Below are positions 35,928-50,542 of a DNA stretch of 55,670 nucleotides, piece after piece. Numbering within the stretch: position 1 is the stretch's first letter; each line of letters begins with the position of its first letter. The stretch spans positions 1 to 55,670 of the forward strand of contig CAINVO010000026.1 of assembly GCA_903854195.1 (NCBI GenBank), given 5' to 3'. The position numbers and the translations under genes are program-made. The DNA comes from an uncultured bacterium (GTDB lineage Bacteria > Patescibacteriota > Minisyncoccia > Phycocordibacterales > CAINVO01). Below the pieces are notes generated by a model, which did not search any database, was not told the origin of the DNA, and saw only the letters and a program-made list of their open reading frames with translations.

Positions 35928-36209
35928 ATGGAAAATAAAAAAACTAACAACAAACTATCTTTAGTCGGTTTTATCGTTTCGATTGTTGGAGTTGTATTTT
36001 TTTTCTCTTCACCATTTCAAGTTCACCCGGACCTTTCATTAGGAATAACTATTAGTATTCTAGGAGGTCTAATAGGTCTTATAGCTTTAGTTCAAATTGA
36101 CAAAAATAAAGAAACACAGAAAGGTCGTGTTTATTCTATTATGTCACTGATTTTTCCAATATTAATCTTTATGTTGTTTCTACTTGCACTTTCAGGTATT
36201 TTTGGATAA
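35928..36209 (+). CDS. three-TM DUF4190-like protein
   Basis: GLIALVQIDKNKETQKGRVYSI between TM segments. Confidence 0.7.
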   Translation: MENKKTNNKLSLVGFIVSIVGVVFFFSSPFQVHPDLSLGITISILGGLIGLIALVQIDKNKETQKGRVYSIMSLIFPILIFMLFLLALSGIFG

Positions 36210-36255
36210 TTTTATAGCAAACTATATCTCCTCTAACTTTAGAGTAAATTAATTT

Positions 36256-36462
36256 ATGCAAAAAATCTCAACTCGAGTCTTCACATACACATCAATTGCT
36301 TTCGGCATTATTGGTTTACTTATTGTTTTTACAAGTTCAGGGCCTGACCATATGGACACATTGTGGGACAAGATACTCGCCAAGCTTTTATTCACTTGCG
36401 TCTTCATTATACTCCCGTCTTTTGCTCTCAGTATTGCGAGTAAGTATTTGAAAGAAAAATAA
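36256..36462 (+). CDS. small two-TM protein
   Basis: 68 aa, hydrophobic. Confidence 0.65.
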   Translation: MQKISTRVFTYTSIAFGIIGLLIVFTSSGPDHMDTLWDKILAKLLFTCVFIILPSFALSIASKYLKEK

Positions 36463-36617
36463 TCTCGGCTGGTTTTATTTACTAAACTCTTCAATTATTG
36501 CGTTTCTAACATCATCACACTTGCTGAGCTTAATTTGACACACTAATTTTAGAGTGTTAATTTGTTTTCAGACAACACAACCCGCTGTGGAAACAGCACA
36601 TTAAAAAGGAACATTGA

Positions 36618-37241
36618 ATGAATAGTCTATTGAACCCAGAAGTATTAATCGCCTTTATCGGCGGTCAAATTGAAATTCAAAACGAAGGAGAAGGATACAT
36701 TCTCCGAGGACAAATCAAAGCCGCGGAAGTTACAAGTCGTAACGATTTCAGAGTCACCCTCGACTGGATGGCGGAAGGTAAAGGTTTTCCACCTCAAGGC
36801 TGGAACACCATTAAGATGCGCCGATACGAAGCGAGTTTGGAGATTTACTCCGTTAGTAACATCGGCCCAAGTCCCCAGGGTGGAGATGATCGTCTCTGCC
36901 TAAACTCGAGTGTCACCGGTGAACTCGTAGTTCTCTTCCCCGCCAATGGAAGCAAGCTCGACACGTCTAAAGTGGAGGGTTTTGTTCTTCCAAAAACAAA
37001 GGAGGAAGTTGAAGCAATTCTTGAAAAAGGAATTGACGGCAAAAAAATAACCATCTACGGTGAAAACCCTGGTGGCTGTGACAGTGTCCGTTATTACTTC
37101 AAACTTTCAGACTCATCCGAGCGTCTGCCAGACGAAGTATTTTCGAAACTCGCCGTCGACAACGGTTTCTCGGAAGGCTGGGAACTAATCAATCTTGCTG
37201 AAGGTTACCAGCTCGTCCGAGGAGCATACTCAAACGACTAA
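36618..37241 (+). CDS. hypothetical protein
   Basis: 207 aa; RBS AAGGA, TTGACA promoter at 36535. Confidence 0.8.
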   Translation: MNSLLNPEVLIAFIGGQIEIQNEGEGYILRGQIKAAEVTSRNDFRVTLDWMAEGKGFPPQGWNTIKMRRYEASLEIYSVSNIGPSPQGGDDRLCLNSSVTGELVVLFPANGSKLDTSKVEGFVLPKTKEEVEAILEKGIDGKKITIYGENPGGCDSVRYYFKLSDSSERLPDEVFSKLAVDNGFSEGWELINLAEGYQLVRGAYSND

Positions 37242-37505
37242 ATAAGATGAATCTCTACTGGTATGACGACTACCAAGCTAAAGCTAAATTGTCGGATGAC
37301 CATCAGAAAATCTGATGGTCTTTATTTTTTATATAACTGTTTTCTTCAATTATTAACATTCGAACTTTGCGCTCAACAAGGAATAACTTTCAAAAATAGA
37401 AAGAAGTTGTATGATTCACAATTACGACAATTTTGACAAACCACTATTTATCTGACATTATTGTGAACAGAGGTTATTTCAACCATCAAAAAAAGGAAAT
37501 TCCAG

Positions 37506-37931
37506 ATGATAGCAGCTGAACAATCATGTTTTACATGCAAAGAACCTGGCTGCGGTCAGGTTGTGAGCATCGAAAGCGAATTTGCAGTCCCAGTGCAAAC
37601 TGGGTGTACTTCCATGTCCACAGCATTTCGGTGCCCTGGGTGTGGCCGTCTTTATTGGGGTGATTTGGACGAGAACAGAGGTGAACCAATCATGAACCGT
37701 CGGTTTGAGAAAGCCTTTATCGATGGCAACACCATCGTAAACAAACCTTTCTCTGCCGAAGAAAAAGATGAACTCATCAAGGGTTACATTCAAGATAGCC
37801 AAGTGGAGAGTTTGATCTTCTTGGCCAAATCTGAACATTCCCCAGATTGCACCACCGTGAGCGACAAAAATTCAGTTTGCTCATGTGGCGTCAATAACGC
37901 ACAAAAATTCATCGATGAACATAAGGGCTAA
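37506..37931 (+). CDS. putative Zn-binding protein
   Basis: CKEPGC, CPGC, H-x3-C-x9-C-x-C; terminator at 37958-37994. Confidence 0.75.
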   Translation: MIAAEQSCFTCKEPGCGQVVSIESEFAVPVQTGCTSMSTAFRCPGCGRLYWGDLDENRGEPIMNRRFEKAFIDGNTIVNKPFSAEEKDELIKGYIQDSQVESLIFLAKSEHSPDCTTVSDKNSVCSCGVNNAQKFIDEHKG

Positions 37932-38091
37932 TAAACCCTTTAACAAAAAAAATTAATCCCGCCCCTTGCTTCAAGCACGGTGGCGGGTTTTATTTTATGT
38001 AAATCATAAAATTATATTTGACATTATAAATATTTATTATAATGTAAAAACAGAAGCAAAAATTGAAAACAACCTAAATAAAGGAGATAGA

Positions 38092-48441: not shown

Positions 48442-48864
48442 ATGAAAAAAATAACACCCTTTCTTTGGTTTGATAACAACGCCGAAGAAGCAATAAATTT
48501 TTATCTTTCGGTTTTTAAAAATGGAAAGAAAATAAATAATAATAAATTCGAAATAGAAGAACAAGAATTTATGGTATTAAACGGCGGACCCCATTTTAAA
48601 TTTAATGAAGCAATTTCAATATTTGTAGATTGTGAGAATCAAGAAGAAGTAGATAATTTATGGGAAAAGCTGTCGGAGGGAGGTGAGAAAGGCCAATGCG
48701 GTTGGTTAAAGGATAAGTTTGGACTCTCTTGGCAAATAATACCCAACATTCTAGGTGAAATGTTGAGTGACCTAGATGAAGAAAAAGCTGATAGAGTTAT
48801 GCAAGCAATGATTAAAATGACGAAAATTGATGTAGAGGAATTAAAAAAAGCCTACAACAACTAA
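48442..48864 (+). CDS. VOC-family (PhnB/3-demethylubiquinone MT-like) protein
   Basis: KITPFLWF, LNGGP, CGWLKDKFGLSWQ. Confidence 0.93.
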   Translation: MKKITPFLWFDNNAEEAINFYLSVFKNGKKINNNKFEIEEQEFMVLNGGPHFKFNEAISIFVDCENQEEVDNLWEKLSEGGEKGQCGWLKDKFGLSWQIIPNILGEMLSDLDEEKADRVMQAMIKMTKIDVEELKKAYNN

Positions 48865-48977
48865 CAACGTTGTGGGTGGCTCAACGTGTACGATCTGCAA
48901 CACAAATTTAGCCAGGATCAATTTGTGTTTTTATATGGAAAAGAGTAATCTTCAAATTAGAAAACAAGGAGGTCTAA

Positions 48978-49247
48978 ATGAAACATGTCACGTTTAGGGT
49001 TTTAAAAAGTGGAGACAAGTTTTTTGCAAAACTCAGCAGCGGAAAAATCCACGAGTTCATGGTGCTCGAGAGAACTGTTCAGGTTTATCTTAGTGAAAGT
49101 CCAGCAAATGTTGTGGACTTAAAAACTGGTAAATTCGTTTTTATCAAGGATACACCACAGACAAAAGTTTACCCGAAATCCATGGCAAAAAACAAAAAAC
49201 CAGATGCTGAAAATATGTGCACAACAGAAGCCAGTATCTGGGAGTGA
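48978..49247 (+). CDS. hypothetical protein
   Basis: 89 aa; RBS AGGAGG, terminator at 49265-49297. Confidence 0.75.
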   Translation: MKHVTFRVLKSGDKFFAKLSSGKIHEFMVLERTVQVYLSESPANVVDLKTGKFVFIKDTPQTKVYPKSMAKNKKPDAENMCTTEASIWE

Positions 49248-49719
49248 TTAGCCACATCCTATTCAAAAGGCCGCTCATCTTATGGGCGGCCTTTTTTATA
49301 ACTTAAGAACACAAAAAAGAATATAAAAAAACAGGCCCCCTTTTAACAAGAGTGGCCTGTTGGCAATTAAATCGAAAGGGTTGGTTTCTTCTTGGAATAA
49401 CCTTCAAAAAATGATTCAGAGATTTAGGCTGCCTACCTATTCTCTATGCTGCAAACTATTATTGATGTTTTCATCAACAAAGCCCAGAGGACATGACTTG
49501 TCCAAGCTGTACGGAACCGCCCGTAGCTCATTTTTGATCAAAAACCACGATACAAACAAGGTACCAGTTTCAGAAAAATACTACACCGAGAGGCATTATC
49601 ATGTCAAGACACACAAAGCCCAAACAACCCGAAAGAAAACCCTATCTTAAACTCAAAGCGTGTTTGACAAAACATTAAAAAAGTGATATTTTCCGAACAG
49701 AATTGCTCTAGAAAAACTT

Positions 49720-50304
49720 ATGAGAAAGAAGCTATCGAAACACGATGACACCACCAGAAAGTTGGCATCGTTTAAAAGGCACTGCTGGTTTTTGTTTCAG
49801 CCATTACTGCTTGCGTTTTTGGCAAGCGTGATCTGGAACTACACCTTGTTCAAATACAAAATTCACTTCGACAAAGAAGATGAAGGTCCCCTACTCACAG
49901 GTGTGATTGTTATCCTGGCAGTGGCATATGGCATCATGACAACATCGACCTTTGAATCAGTGTATGGCAAGCACCAGAAATCCGTGATCAGTGTTTTGAA
50001 GAAGGATCGGGAGACATTTTTATGTTACAGGGATGAAAGGATCCCCATAATAATTCATCTCCTCATCATCACTTTTTCAGCACTACTCCTCGGCATTGTT
50101 TCATTGATTGCCTACAAGACTTTGTACGCCGGACTCGTGTCGGTATTCTCTGTCTCGTTTGTTTTGTCACTCTATTGGCTTGTTATCATTGAACTCCAAA
50201 ATCCGGCAAAAAGCCTGTGGTTCATCGAAAGAACTCCAAATGAATGGCTTACAATTGACATTGACGACGCGTTCAAATTAGGAGAAGGGCACGAAGAAAT
50301 ATAA
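49720..50304 (+). CDS. four-TM hypothetical membrane protein
   Basis: 194 aa; TTGACA at 49664. Confidence 0.78.
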   Translation: MRKKLSKHDDTTRKLASFKRHCWFLFQPLLLAFLASVIWNYTLFKYKIHFDKEDEGPLLTGVIVILAVAYGIMTTSTFESVYGKHQKSVISVLKKDRETFLCYRDERIPIIIHLLIITFSALLLGIVSLIAYKTLYAGLVSVFSVSFVLSLYWLVIIELQNPAKSLWFIERTPNEWLTIDIDDAFKLGEGHEEI

Positions 50305-50361
50305 ACCCACAACTCAACAACAGGAAATCCACCTGTCATGTTGAGGGTGGGTTTTTTGTTT
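50303..50361 (+). repeat. 3' hairpin family I, copy C
   Basis: loop AACAGGAAATCCACCTGTCAT. Confidence 0.85.
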
Positions 50362-50410
50362 GAAAATAAATTAAATAAAACTATAAAAAAAGTTCGAACA
50401 GTATGTACTA

Positions 50411-50542
50411 CTATTTTCCTTTAGCAAGTTTTTTCTCACGATCTTGTCTCTCTTTAGTACTAACCTTAATAGCTCTTTTACTAGCATCACCAGCTTGTTT
50501 TTTTGCCTTAGATGCATTCCAACCTTTTTTTGTATTAGACAT
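50411..50542 (-). CDS. 43-aa Lys/Arg-rich small protein (below the ORF-track cutoff)
   Basis: MSNTKKGWNASKAKKQAGDASKRAIKVSTKERQDREKKLAKGK. Confidence 0.6.
   Translation of the reverse strand: MSNTKKGWNASKAKKQAGDASKRAIKVSTKERQDREKKLAKGK

Follow-up and report, generated by a model that had tools for sequence, protein, structure and literature searches.

A contig of 55,670 nucleotides (nt) from a draft genome of an uncultured bacterium of the Patescibacteriota, order Phycocordibacterales (contig CAINVO010000026.1, assembly GCA_903854195.1), was analysed over its whole length, which is called the window here. Between a tRNA-Asn gene and a phage-like block the window holds an island of small genes (35.9-50.6 kb) in which two styles of gene are interleaved. 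About 13 of the genes form autonomous units that differ in composition and expression signals from 90% of the genome; such units are concentrated in the island and occur singly elsewhere. We lean towards the view that the island is the main flexible-gene zone of the genome, anchored at tRNA-Asn, and that it is a mosaic of host-style genes and moron-like ORFan units gained by general recombination.

Genes were called with one simple codon-usage caller on all 45 contigs of the draft genome (G000; 814,274 bases, 94% complete), the window being the entire contig C26. Relatives of the same order have genomes of 0.4-1.3 Mb, a size range that points to an organism of the candidate-phyla-radiation type. 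The 901 genes obtained, 26 in the island and 875 in the rest, were each scored for a strong terminator (within 120 nt), a TTGACA-N15-19-YAnnWT promoter (within 160 nt), a Shine-Dalgarno (SD) motif, the GC content at third codon positions (GC3) and a codon score. A strong terminator was found at 13/26 island genes (50%) and at 135/875 others (15%; Fisher p=5.8e-5), a consensus promoter at 7/26 (27%) and 24/875 (2.7%; p=1.2e-5), and an SD motif at 11/26 (42%) as against 8.1% elsewhere (p=4.6e-6). When any start codon in the first 40 codons was accepted, as an upper bound, the SD counts were 11/26 and 91/875 (p=4e-5), and 5.8% for 207 long core-like genes. Island genes had higher GC3 (0.355 vs 0.288, p=1.2e-4), a lower codon score (0.18 vs 0.28, p=8e-6) and a shorter median length (130 vs 205 amino acids (aa), p=4e-4). 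In sliding windows of 12 genes, terminator frequency in the island ranked first in the genome; other terminator-rich stretches were seen, for example at 6-15 kb of contig C28 and 0-11 kb of contig C7.

A preliminary description of this DNA, made from the letters alone, had listed seven TTGACA sites (36535, 38792, 40080, 44951, 46555, 47942, 49664). All of them proved to be -35 hexamers with a spacer of 16-18 nt and a -10-like hexamer, often with TG in front, and each stands upstream of an open reading frame (ORF) on the + strand; two further promoters of the TTGACA type were found at 37433 and 38018. The description had also given many of the genes a ribosome binding site and a hairpin of their own and had placed most of them on the + strand. 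The SD counts above bear out the former point, and a stem-loop of -15 to -31 kcal/mol followed by a T-run lies within 130 nt 3' of 15/26 island ORFs, with 20 genes on the + strand and 6 on the - strand. A generic terminator scan gave 30 terminator-like sites, compared with 13.4 +/- 3.3 in shuffled sequence.

The genes of the autonomous units (starts at 36618, 37506, 38092, 38876, 39401, 40140, 43141, 44188, 45071, 46644, 48025, 48978 and 49720) have a GC3 of 0.35-0.47, an SD motif, a GC-rich terminator and, in most cases, a TTGACA promoter that lies 60-110 nt upstream. The AT-rich genes (35928, 40503, 41615, 43638 (TipAS), 45890, 47369, 48442 (PhnB-like) and 50411) have a GC3 of 0.16-0.32, no SD motif and mostly no strong terminator. 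The OmdA/YdeI gene (46186) is intermediate in composition, and two units (39145-39262 and 47100-47335) hold no ORF. Four features (SD, promoter, terminator and GC3>0.36) were counted per gene, and 32 genes genome-wide combined three or more. The island, which is 1.8% of the genome, holds ten of these, or 13 after three mis-called starts were corrected. Those outside are scattered singletons, one of which, on contig C21, ends in a hairpin of family I (described below), and one of which, on contig C28 (15006-15425), is a 48% paralogue of the 43141 gene. The description had counted about 25 self-contained single-gene cassettes; put more sharply, there are roughly 13 promoter-SD-gene-terminator units, with AT-rich host-style genes between them.

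An SD motif was present in 6-10% of genes genome-wide, and in several island genes (35928, 42325, 45890, 47369, 48442) a -10-like box stands a few bases 5' of the ATG. This suggests that leaderless or SD-independent initiation may be widespread in G000. The assembly contains no 16S rRNA gene, so there was no 16S anti-SD to read.

As we picture it, the host-style genes, with their -10 box near the ATG and no SD, would encode stand-alone small-molecule-binding or protective proteins and membrane proteins, several of which recur in relatives. The ORFan units, each consisting of a predicted sigma-70 promoter (often with an extended -10), an SD leader, a gene and a GC-rich intrinsic terminator, would have come in by horizontal transfer, singly or a few together, in the manner of phage morons. 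Because each unit would start and stop its own transcript, it could be inserted or lost without polar effects, and units of this kind would for that reason build up at places where insertions do no harm. Their gain and loss would have proceeded by illegitimate or short-homology recombination and not through a dedicated cassette recombinase, and the neighbouring serine recombinase would be part of a phage-like element that arrived independently in this tolerant zone.

Bacteria of the candidate phyla radiation have tiny genomes, and little is known of how they acquire and test new genes. Here a genome that is nearly without SD motifs and consensus promoters holds a dense stack of rare genes that carry both, each insulated by a terminator. 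If these are indeed acquired 'plug-and-play' units, they would mark a shared pool of mobile single genes, and the combination of SD, TTGACA promoter, terminator and high GC3 would be a signature of recently acquired genes in such genomes.

The locus was compared with those of relatives of the same order. A block upstream of tRNA-Asn (priA-def-fmt, hpf and the YggU-like gene yggU) is conserved and syntenic in G001, G006, G017, G033 and G035, and the first island ORF starts 80 nt 3' of the tRNA gene. G001 is the sole genome of the same genus, with core proteins around the locus that are about 55-65% identical to those of G000; no closer relative was found for the tRNA-Asn locus, and the best hpf homologue reaches 56% identity. 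Across the order, many relatives show disturbance on the 3' side of tRNA-Asn. In G001 (L011, 3667-5424, 565 aa) and in G033, a member of another family (L017, 1297-3018, 553 aa), a large serine recombinase converges on tRNA-Asn; both proteins end in LPR, with the last ~13 nt of the gene on the complement of the tRNA 3' end. The overlap suggests that these LPR-type recombinases may form a family that integrates into tRNA-Asn and whose reading frame is completed from the target. The contigs of G030 and G031 stop exactly at the 3' end of tRNA-Asn, and those of G009, G034 and G024 have it at their first bases. In two relatives the halves of tRNA-Asn match separately, about 250-260 nt apart (G039 C8, 6203-6241 and 6489-6527; G027 C20, 7684-7721 and 7981-8020), a pattern that would fit an intron or an insertion close to the anticodon loop.

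Relatives carry homologues of several island genes, in an order and among neighbours that differ from those of G000. In G012 a homologue of the 38092 gene (36%) directly follows tRNA-Asn, with PhnB-like and OmdA homologues further downstream; in G033 PhnB-like and OmdA homologues come after the recombinase and about 15 small genes, many with terminators. The OmdA homologues of these two genomes are 63-66% identical in amino acids. G006 has a 27% homologue of the 49720 gene 15 kb downstream of tRNA-Asn, and G001 has homologues of the 36256 gene (62%) and of the PhnB-like gene on other contigs with unrelated neighbours. PhnB-like homologues are found in many relatives, and OmdA, PhnB-like and TipAS genes have nucleotide-level matches in many (TipAS in G039 and G012). 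The ORFan units had no nucleotide-level match in 40 relatives except for 46-72 nt around the 38092 unit, and none of the SD-bearing units was detectable beside the tRNA-Asn of the sister genome G001.

Two comparisons reach the scale of single modules. The Logan contig L046 encodes a protein 87% identical to the 207-aa one (36618), and its nucleotide identity with window 36523-37245 is 84.5%, beginning about 10 nt before the -35 box and ending 4 nt past the stop codon. Homology stops abruptly on both sides, and the flanks are unrelated to those in the window. On L046, homologues of genes that G000 has on contig C28 (72-90% aa) alternate with this module and an OmdA gene, and the C28-type genes differ from those of G000 by one- and two-gene indels. 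In G001 (L035, C1 ~11400-13250) about 1.4 kb lie between a ribosomal-protein gene and rpsN, vs a spacer of ~160 nt in G000 (C21, 64392-64790). The insert holds an ORFan with a family-I-type hairpin, a long hairpin of 100 nt and a RelB/RelE-like pair preceded by a TTGACA promoter and an SD of its own. Taken together, the relatives showed turnover in units of one self-expressed gene; how the units move is not thereby shown. Of the plasticity zone built by cassette-wise insertion that had been proposed, the plasticity is supported by the mosaic composition and by the differing gene order of relatives, and the cassette-wise part in some measure, by the L046 module and the G001 indel.

Look-ups of exact proteins in other assemblies returned only contigs of 0.8-2 kb, 99.7-100% identical to and collinear with the window. 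Such near-identical contigs, from four other public assemblies, cross several junctions collinearly (5/8 are 100% identical over their whole length), and for this reason the mosaic is not an assembly artefact.

In integrons a tyrosine recombinase, IntI, acts on attI and attC sites, and the cassettes are mostly promoterless and are read from a common promoter, Pc; clusters of attC sites lacking integron integrases (CALINs) have at least two attC sites. The island is like them in its mostly co-oriented, unrelated single-gene units with a hairpin at each 3' end. The only two tyrosine recombinases of G000 (PF00589), however, were found on contigs C21 and C3 and none in the window. A search for the complementary R''/R' pairs that form attC sites at cassette 3' ends (RYYYAAC and GTTRRRY, 57-141 nt) gave 0 in 35849-50600, with 1.1 +/- 1.5 in shuffles, and the sole ACTCAAC...GTTGAGG pairs are 21-23 nt apart, within terminators. 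Unlike promoterless cassettes, at least 9 units carry a TTGACA-17-TAnnnT promoter, and at least 15 a terminator, of their own; the hairpins are variable and have T-runs, and 6/26 genes are inverted. Island junctions shared no common sequence beyond the promoter and terminator consensus, and at 13 units the longest word shared by the two flanks, as would mark a target-site duplication, averaged 7.08, vs 7.15 in mismatched controls. The absence of intI and of canonical attC sites, which the description had noted, agrees with these searches, and the integron-like logic that it saw in the array was not borne out.

Homologous 3' elements behind unrelated genes, another of its observations, are real. 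Segments 40436-40494 and 50303-50361 show 75% identity along 59 nt, rising to 94% in a 36-nt core. They belong to a family of hairpins (family I; loop ACAGGAAAnCCACCTGTCAY) found at 39101, 40454, 47052 and 50320, that is at 4 of about 26 junctions, with one more copy on another contig; a second pair (family II) lies at 38646 and 45731. Family-I hairpins start 0-14 nt after the stop codon and are followed by a T-run, like terminators, which is what the island hairpins are; the one at 40440-40486 folds on the - strand too. Inspection of the sequence shows that their inner hairpin, CAGG-N7-CCTG, has a stem identical to that of the T-arm. The strict motif occurred once each in 7 of 200 other genomes of the order, vs 5 control matches, which is chance level.

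In the units 40140 (98 aa, soluble) and 49720 (194 aa, membrane) the homology extends to the other end: their promoter and +1 regions (40074-40117 and 49658-49701) share a promoter-proximal ATATTTTmCGAACAGA, and the cargo between the two ends is unrelated. An all-against-all comparison of 24 intergenic segments gave one significant match between sites, 40459-40493 with 50326-50361. Two direct repeats were also noted. The 12-nt TAACTATATTTC occurs at 35857-35868, 9 nt after tRNA-Asn, and at 51355-51366, in the spacer left of the serine recombinase, so that it brackets the island; it is statistically weak (p about 0.03-0.1 by our estimate). An 18/23 repeat at 36488-36510 and 37343-37365 (12 nt exact, TCTTCAATTATT) brackets the promoter, gene and terminator of the 36618 unit. 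The exact 12-mer was present twice in the window and once elsewhere, and a longer gapped motif fitted well at the two window sites only; it is not a genome-wide junction motif.

Among other explanations, a decayed or divergent capture platform was considered, on which a serine recombinase stacked small circles at tRNA-Asn and the hairpins are remnants of attachment-site halves. It would account for the start of the array close to the tRNA gene, the shared orientation of most units, the LPR-type recombinases over the tRNA 3' end of G001 and G033 (in G033 with the small-gene array and its terminators behind it), the five relatives whose contigs end or begin at tRNA-Asn, and the T-arm stem of the family-I hairpin. 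We nevertheless consider it unlikely. In the window the tRNA-Asn 3' end had no repeat besides the tRNA itself at up to 5/24 or 3/18 mismatches, and its local alignment scored no higher than in shuffles; separators made of the tRNA 3' end were lacking in the window and in the G001 and G033 loci, and in 41 related genomes (up to 2/21 mismatches) more than one copy was never seen, the eight matching relatives having a single copy each. The island contained no recombinase tail or pseudogene (tblastn, best E=0.44), and G000 has no LPR-type recombinase, that of the window being of another type and 15.8 kb from tRNA-Asn. The family-I hairpin, moreover, is found at few junctions, always as a terminator would be placed, and its strict motif is essentially confined to G000. 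A working or recent platform, served by recombinases of the G001/G033 type and with T-arm-like terminator hairpins doubling as recombination sites, is rather improbable; it would amount to an analogue of the integron built on a different enzyme class, in which each captured gene brings its own expression signals. The same low probability was assigned to a single integrated element (a prophage remnant, satellite or integrative island) reaching from tRNA-Asn to beyond the contig end, with the serine recombinase as its integrase. The atypical composition would fit, as would the recombinase, methylase, TerS-like gene and defence-candidate gene at one end, the recombinase and methylase-like gene that G033 has between tRNA-Asn and the small-gene array with its OmdA and PhnB-like homologues, and the TAACTATATTTC repeat. 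That repeat is weak, however, and to our knowledge serine integrases leave no 12-nt direct repeats; an integrase at one end with a repeat of the tRNA 3' end at the other was not found, the only repeat being this non-tRNA one. PHROGs gave no match for island ORFs tested singly. A pooled PADLOC scan returned only methylase, PDC-S57 and PD-Lambda-1 families, assigned per protein to the methylase and GIY-YIG genes outside the island, and no structural, replication or conjugation genes were listed in the pooled scan. Host-style homologues also occur with no recombinase nearby (in G012 beside tRNA-Asn, in L046 among C28-type genes), the block of recombinase, methylase and TerS-like gene recurs in G035 without island genes, and the G030 orthologue of the recombinase has other neighbours, beside tRNA-Ser.

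Shuffling by homologous recombination between terminator-plus-promoter junction modules, possibly through mini-circles, as for the PeSL cassettes of phages, is quite unlikely. A terminator is followed within 16-38 nt by a strong promoter at 37958/38018, 40017/40080, 43010/43070 and 44910/44951, units 40140 and 49720 share both ends of their shell, and the L046 breakpoint falls at the -35 box. Beyond that one pair, on the other hand, the junctions among the 24 segments share just the hexamer consensus, so that the long near-identical repeats on which homologous recombination would act are missing, and there is no phage context. Least probable of all is an ordinary, vertically inherited region in which the signals mark native, independently regulated (e.g. 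stress-induced) small genes. In its favour, some island genes are old residents of the neighbourhood across families of the order, the genome has other terminator-rich stretches, and the sequence is near-identical and collinear in four other samples; the SD-bearing units, however, are set apart by their GC3 and codon usage, are members of very small families, and lack nucleotide matches in the 40 relatives, bar the short ones at 38092, and counterparts beside the G001 tRNA-Asn.

Several points weigh against a mosaic gained by general recombination. Homology limited to a module, as on L046, can also result from turnover of neighbours around a retained gene, and the nearest genome, at the genus level, is too distant for single gains or losses in the array to be seen. 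The distinct signals of the units could mark a special expression class of native genes. That units 40140 and 49720 have a shell in common hints at a process acting on shells, for which this explanation has no need, and the TAACTATATTTC repeat around the island and the 18/23 repeat around the 36618 unit are left unexplained by it. Together with the tRNA-Asn recombinases of relatives, this shell and both bracketing repeats keep a site-specific process alive at low probability. Finally, the contig ends inside the phage-like block, so the right-hand limit of the flexible zone is not fixed.

The closest known counterpart of the units may be the morons, which are reportedly (Juhala et al. 2000; Hendrix et al.) independent promoter-gene-terminator units between the genes of lambdoid prophages. 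Ten island genes, 13 with corrected starts, combine an own promoter, a terminator and deviant composition; as in morons, the promoter is of the sigma-70 type, the terminator is factor-independent, the cargo is unrelated and mostly without known function, and units also occur singly between conserved genes. Unlike morons, about 13 of them are stacked here in a cellular chromosome with no phage genes around, the phage-like genes beginning at 51.6 kb, and they bring SD motifs into a genome that hardly uses them. PeSL regulatory cassettes shuffle ORFans in hyperplastic regions of T4-type phages (Arbiol et al. 2010 PMC2839356; Comeau et al. 2014 PMC4122927). The island is likewise the plastic part of an otherwise conserved genome; PeSLs, however, are conserved composite repeats that recombine mutually, whereas the present junctions are non-repeated bar one pair and lie in a cellular context.

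Tandem islands offer a further comparison. SCC (staphylococcal cassette chromosome) composite islands are tandem serine-recombinase islands comparable to the ssrA-specific ones of Dehalococcoides. The latter are stacked at a small-RNA gene (McMurdie et al. 2011, PMC3146451). Shared with that type are the 3' side of a single-copy small-RNA gene as anchor, the stacked unrelated accessory genes, and, in relatives G001 and G033, a large serine recombinase that overlaps the anchor. Those islands have a repeat of the target 3' end at their unit boundaries, which is present neither here nor in 41 relatives, and the recombinase of the window differs in type and is part of the phage-like block, apart from the island. 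Dehalococcoides also has high-plasticity regions, an example of the tRNA-linked islands or plasticity zones of small genomes (PMC2764846). In both cases strain- or lineage-specific genes of atypical composition are gathered at one or a few loci of a streamlined genome, beside a tRNA, and the content varies among relatives; in contrast, the island has no tRNA-proximal integrase and no duplicated tRNA end, and what turns over seems to be one self-expressed gene at a time and not a multi-gene island.

As far as can be judged, the island genes are functionally unrelated, as the description had held. Five proteins scored above the Pfam threshold, each in another family, and NCBIfam added sub-threshold SemiSWEET and XAC2610-related matches. 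By their family names, the annotated host-style genes (TipAS, YdeI/OmdA, VOC/PhnB-like) may have a loose theme of small-molecule binding or protection; three more genes of the glyoxalase/bleomycin-resistance fold lie in the same neighbourhood on a relative's contig. The 206-aa family (45071) had 6 other cluster representatives among 1.84 billion, and the SemiSWEET-like protein (48025) had no match in a word-indexed protein search. A wider distribution was seen for the N-terminal domain of the 207-aa protein (36618): it occurs in 41 clusters, with one genome among them labelled Pacearchaeota, and stands among ordinary housekeeping genes in both genomes examined. The AlphaFold model of this protein has a pLDDT of 90 and matched no fold in the PDB at E<0.05; PDB sequence searches with two ORFans gave no match. 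The 44188 and 45071 proteins showed no BLASTP similarity and were weakly collinear in a profile comparison (E=0.055), so that tandem paralogy is not established.

Rfam, run on the window, returned only tRNA at the gathering score, the rest being chance-level at E<=5. In the ORF-less unit at 47100-47335 the 5' hairpin is conserved, an internal helix shows two compensatory changes, and the 47 nt at the 3' end have 94% identity with a counterpart in another family; homologous stretches are found in G009 (L053 ~7105-7330, - strand, 7 kb from tRNA-Asn) and G026 (L054 ~3650-3920). The unit is probably a genuine structured RNA, one not detected by any Rfam family. In G009 the sequence behind the homologue is masked (N). 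The other ORF-less unit (39145-39262) has a fold z-score of -3.8 and may be a small RNA cassette.

The preliminary description had also placed a serine recombinase at the far end of the array, and it is there (51628-52995, - strand). On present evidence it is not the enzyme of the island, since it travels with the ParB-methylase and TerS-like genes and its G030 orthologue has no island homologues nearby. This closest orthologue (67% aa) lies beside tRNA-Ser among other neighbours. In G035 a related recombinase adjoins homologues of the methylase (60% aa) and of the TerS-like gene, again with no island genes, and two other recombinases of this type in G000 do not adjoin cassette arrays. The 120 nt 3' of the recombinase stop codon are non-coding and include a 37-nt core (51560-51596) with AAAGTGACA twice, beside the 16-nt palindrome GCTAAAAATTTTTAGC; this stretch with its 37-nt motif is found again, amid small phage-like ORFs, in G030 (twice) and G037. 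From these associations we conclude that the block is an independent phage-like or satellite element whose left end extends at least to 51510.

Table 1. Features of the window from tRNA-Asn to the contig end.
Feature	Position	Strand	Remarks
tRNA-Asn (GTT)	35776..35848	+	Left anchor of island; ARAGORN; Rfam 70.8 bits
Two small membrane-protein ORFs (93, 68 aa)	35928..36462	+	AT-rich, without SD; the second (68 aa) with a 62% homologue in G001
Autonomous unit	36523..37331	+	TTGACA 36535, SD, 207-aa gene 36618-37241, hairpin 37298-37320 and T-run
Autonomous unit	37433..37995	+	Promoter 37433, SD, Cys-rich 141-aa ORFan 37506-37931, terminator 37958-37987 (-19 kcal/mol)
Autonomous unit	38018..38700	+	Promoter 38018, SD, 181-aa gene 38092-38637, family-II terminator 38646-38688
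Autonomous unit	38792..39140	+	11/12 promoter 38792, SD, 70-aa ORF 38876-39088, family-I terminator 39088-39131 (-30.8 kcal/mol)
ORF-less promoter-terminator unit	39145..39262	+	TTTACA-18-CATTAT, ~85 nt, hairpin 39213-39251 (-28 kcal/mol) and T-run
Unit	39306..40050	+	SD, 199-aa ORFan 39401-40000, perfect 26-nt palindromic terminator 40017-40042
Autonomous unit	40080..40494	+	Promoter 40080, SD, 98-aa ORFan 40140-40436, family-I terminator 40440-40486
Two AT-rich membrane-protein genes	40503..42325	-	YaeI/LpxG-like metallophosphoesterase, 365 aa; DUF6629 protein, 236 aa (41615); Pfam; NCBIfam below cut-off
Membrane ORF (171 aa) and ORF (48 aa)	42325..43045	+	Followed by terminator 43010-43036
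Unit	43070..43615	+	TTGACG promoter, SD, 134-aa ORFan 43141-43545, terminator 43575-43606
Stand-alone TipAS antibiotic-recognition-domain protein, 135 aa	43638..44045	+	Pfam E=1.8e-35; AT-rich, without SD
Two adjacent autonomous units	44084..45775	+	233-aa ORFan 44188-44889 (terminator 44910-44935) and 206-aa ORFan
206-aa ORFan unit	Promoter 44951, gene 45071-45691	+	Family-II terminator 45731-45768
AT-rich 97-aa ORF (+) and convergent YdeI/OmdA gene 46186-46437 (-)	45890..46437	both	Pfam
Autonomous unit	46555..47090	+	Promoter 46555, SD, 127-aa ORFan 46644-47027, family-I terminator 47041-47079
ORF-less unit, candidate structured RNA	47100..47335	+	
AT-rich 180-aa protein with N-terminal hydrophobic segment	47369..47911	+	Weak XAC2610-related domain match (NCBIfam, below cut-off)
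Autonomous unit	47942..48370	+	11/12 promoter 47942, SD, 95-aa SemiSWEET-like membrane protein 48025-48312, terminator 48336-48363
PhnB-like / 3-demethylubiquinone-methyltransferase-fold (VOC) protein	48442..48864	+	Pfam E=1.1e-37; AT-rich, without SD
Unit	48909..49300	+	SD, 89-aa ORFan 48978-49247, terminator 49268-49292
Autonomous unit	49664..50361	+	Promoter 49664, 194-aa membrane ORFan 49720-50304, family-I terminator 50305-50352 (-24.3 kcal/mol)
Two host-like genes right of array	50411..51300	-	43-aa basic protein; 195-aa protein with N-terminal hydrophobic segment
Phage-like block to contig end	51510..55670	both	Recombinase, ParB-methyltransferase, TerS-like, GIY-YIG
Large serine recombinase, 455 aa	51628-52995	-	Divergent from ParB-methyltransferase
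ParB-methyltransferase	53285-54562	+	
TerS-like helix-turn-helix (HTH) protein	54537-55076	+	
GIY-YIG/T5orf172 protein	55086-55652	-	PADLOC PDC-S57, E=4e-66

The two genes right of the array have codon scores of 0.42 (43 aa) and 0.27 (195 aa), with just a weak PHROG match. Three contig tails from other assemblies did not match the window, and one of them (L045) is Illumina adapter. The other two, of 32 nt (L014, 1-32, joining the window at 36290) and 45 nt (L043, 1603-1647, joining at 45867, just 3' of a -10 box), come from one other sample and belong to contigs whose aligned parts are 99.9-100% identical to the window; the 45-nt tail had no exact match among JGI metagenome contigs. They may be strain variants or chimeric ends. 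Contig C3 of G000 (41 kb) has a GC content of 0.40, vs 0.37 for the genome, the lowest codon scores of the genome and a tyrosine recombinase (32963-33478), and may be a further foreign element or a mis-binned contig.

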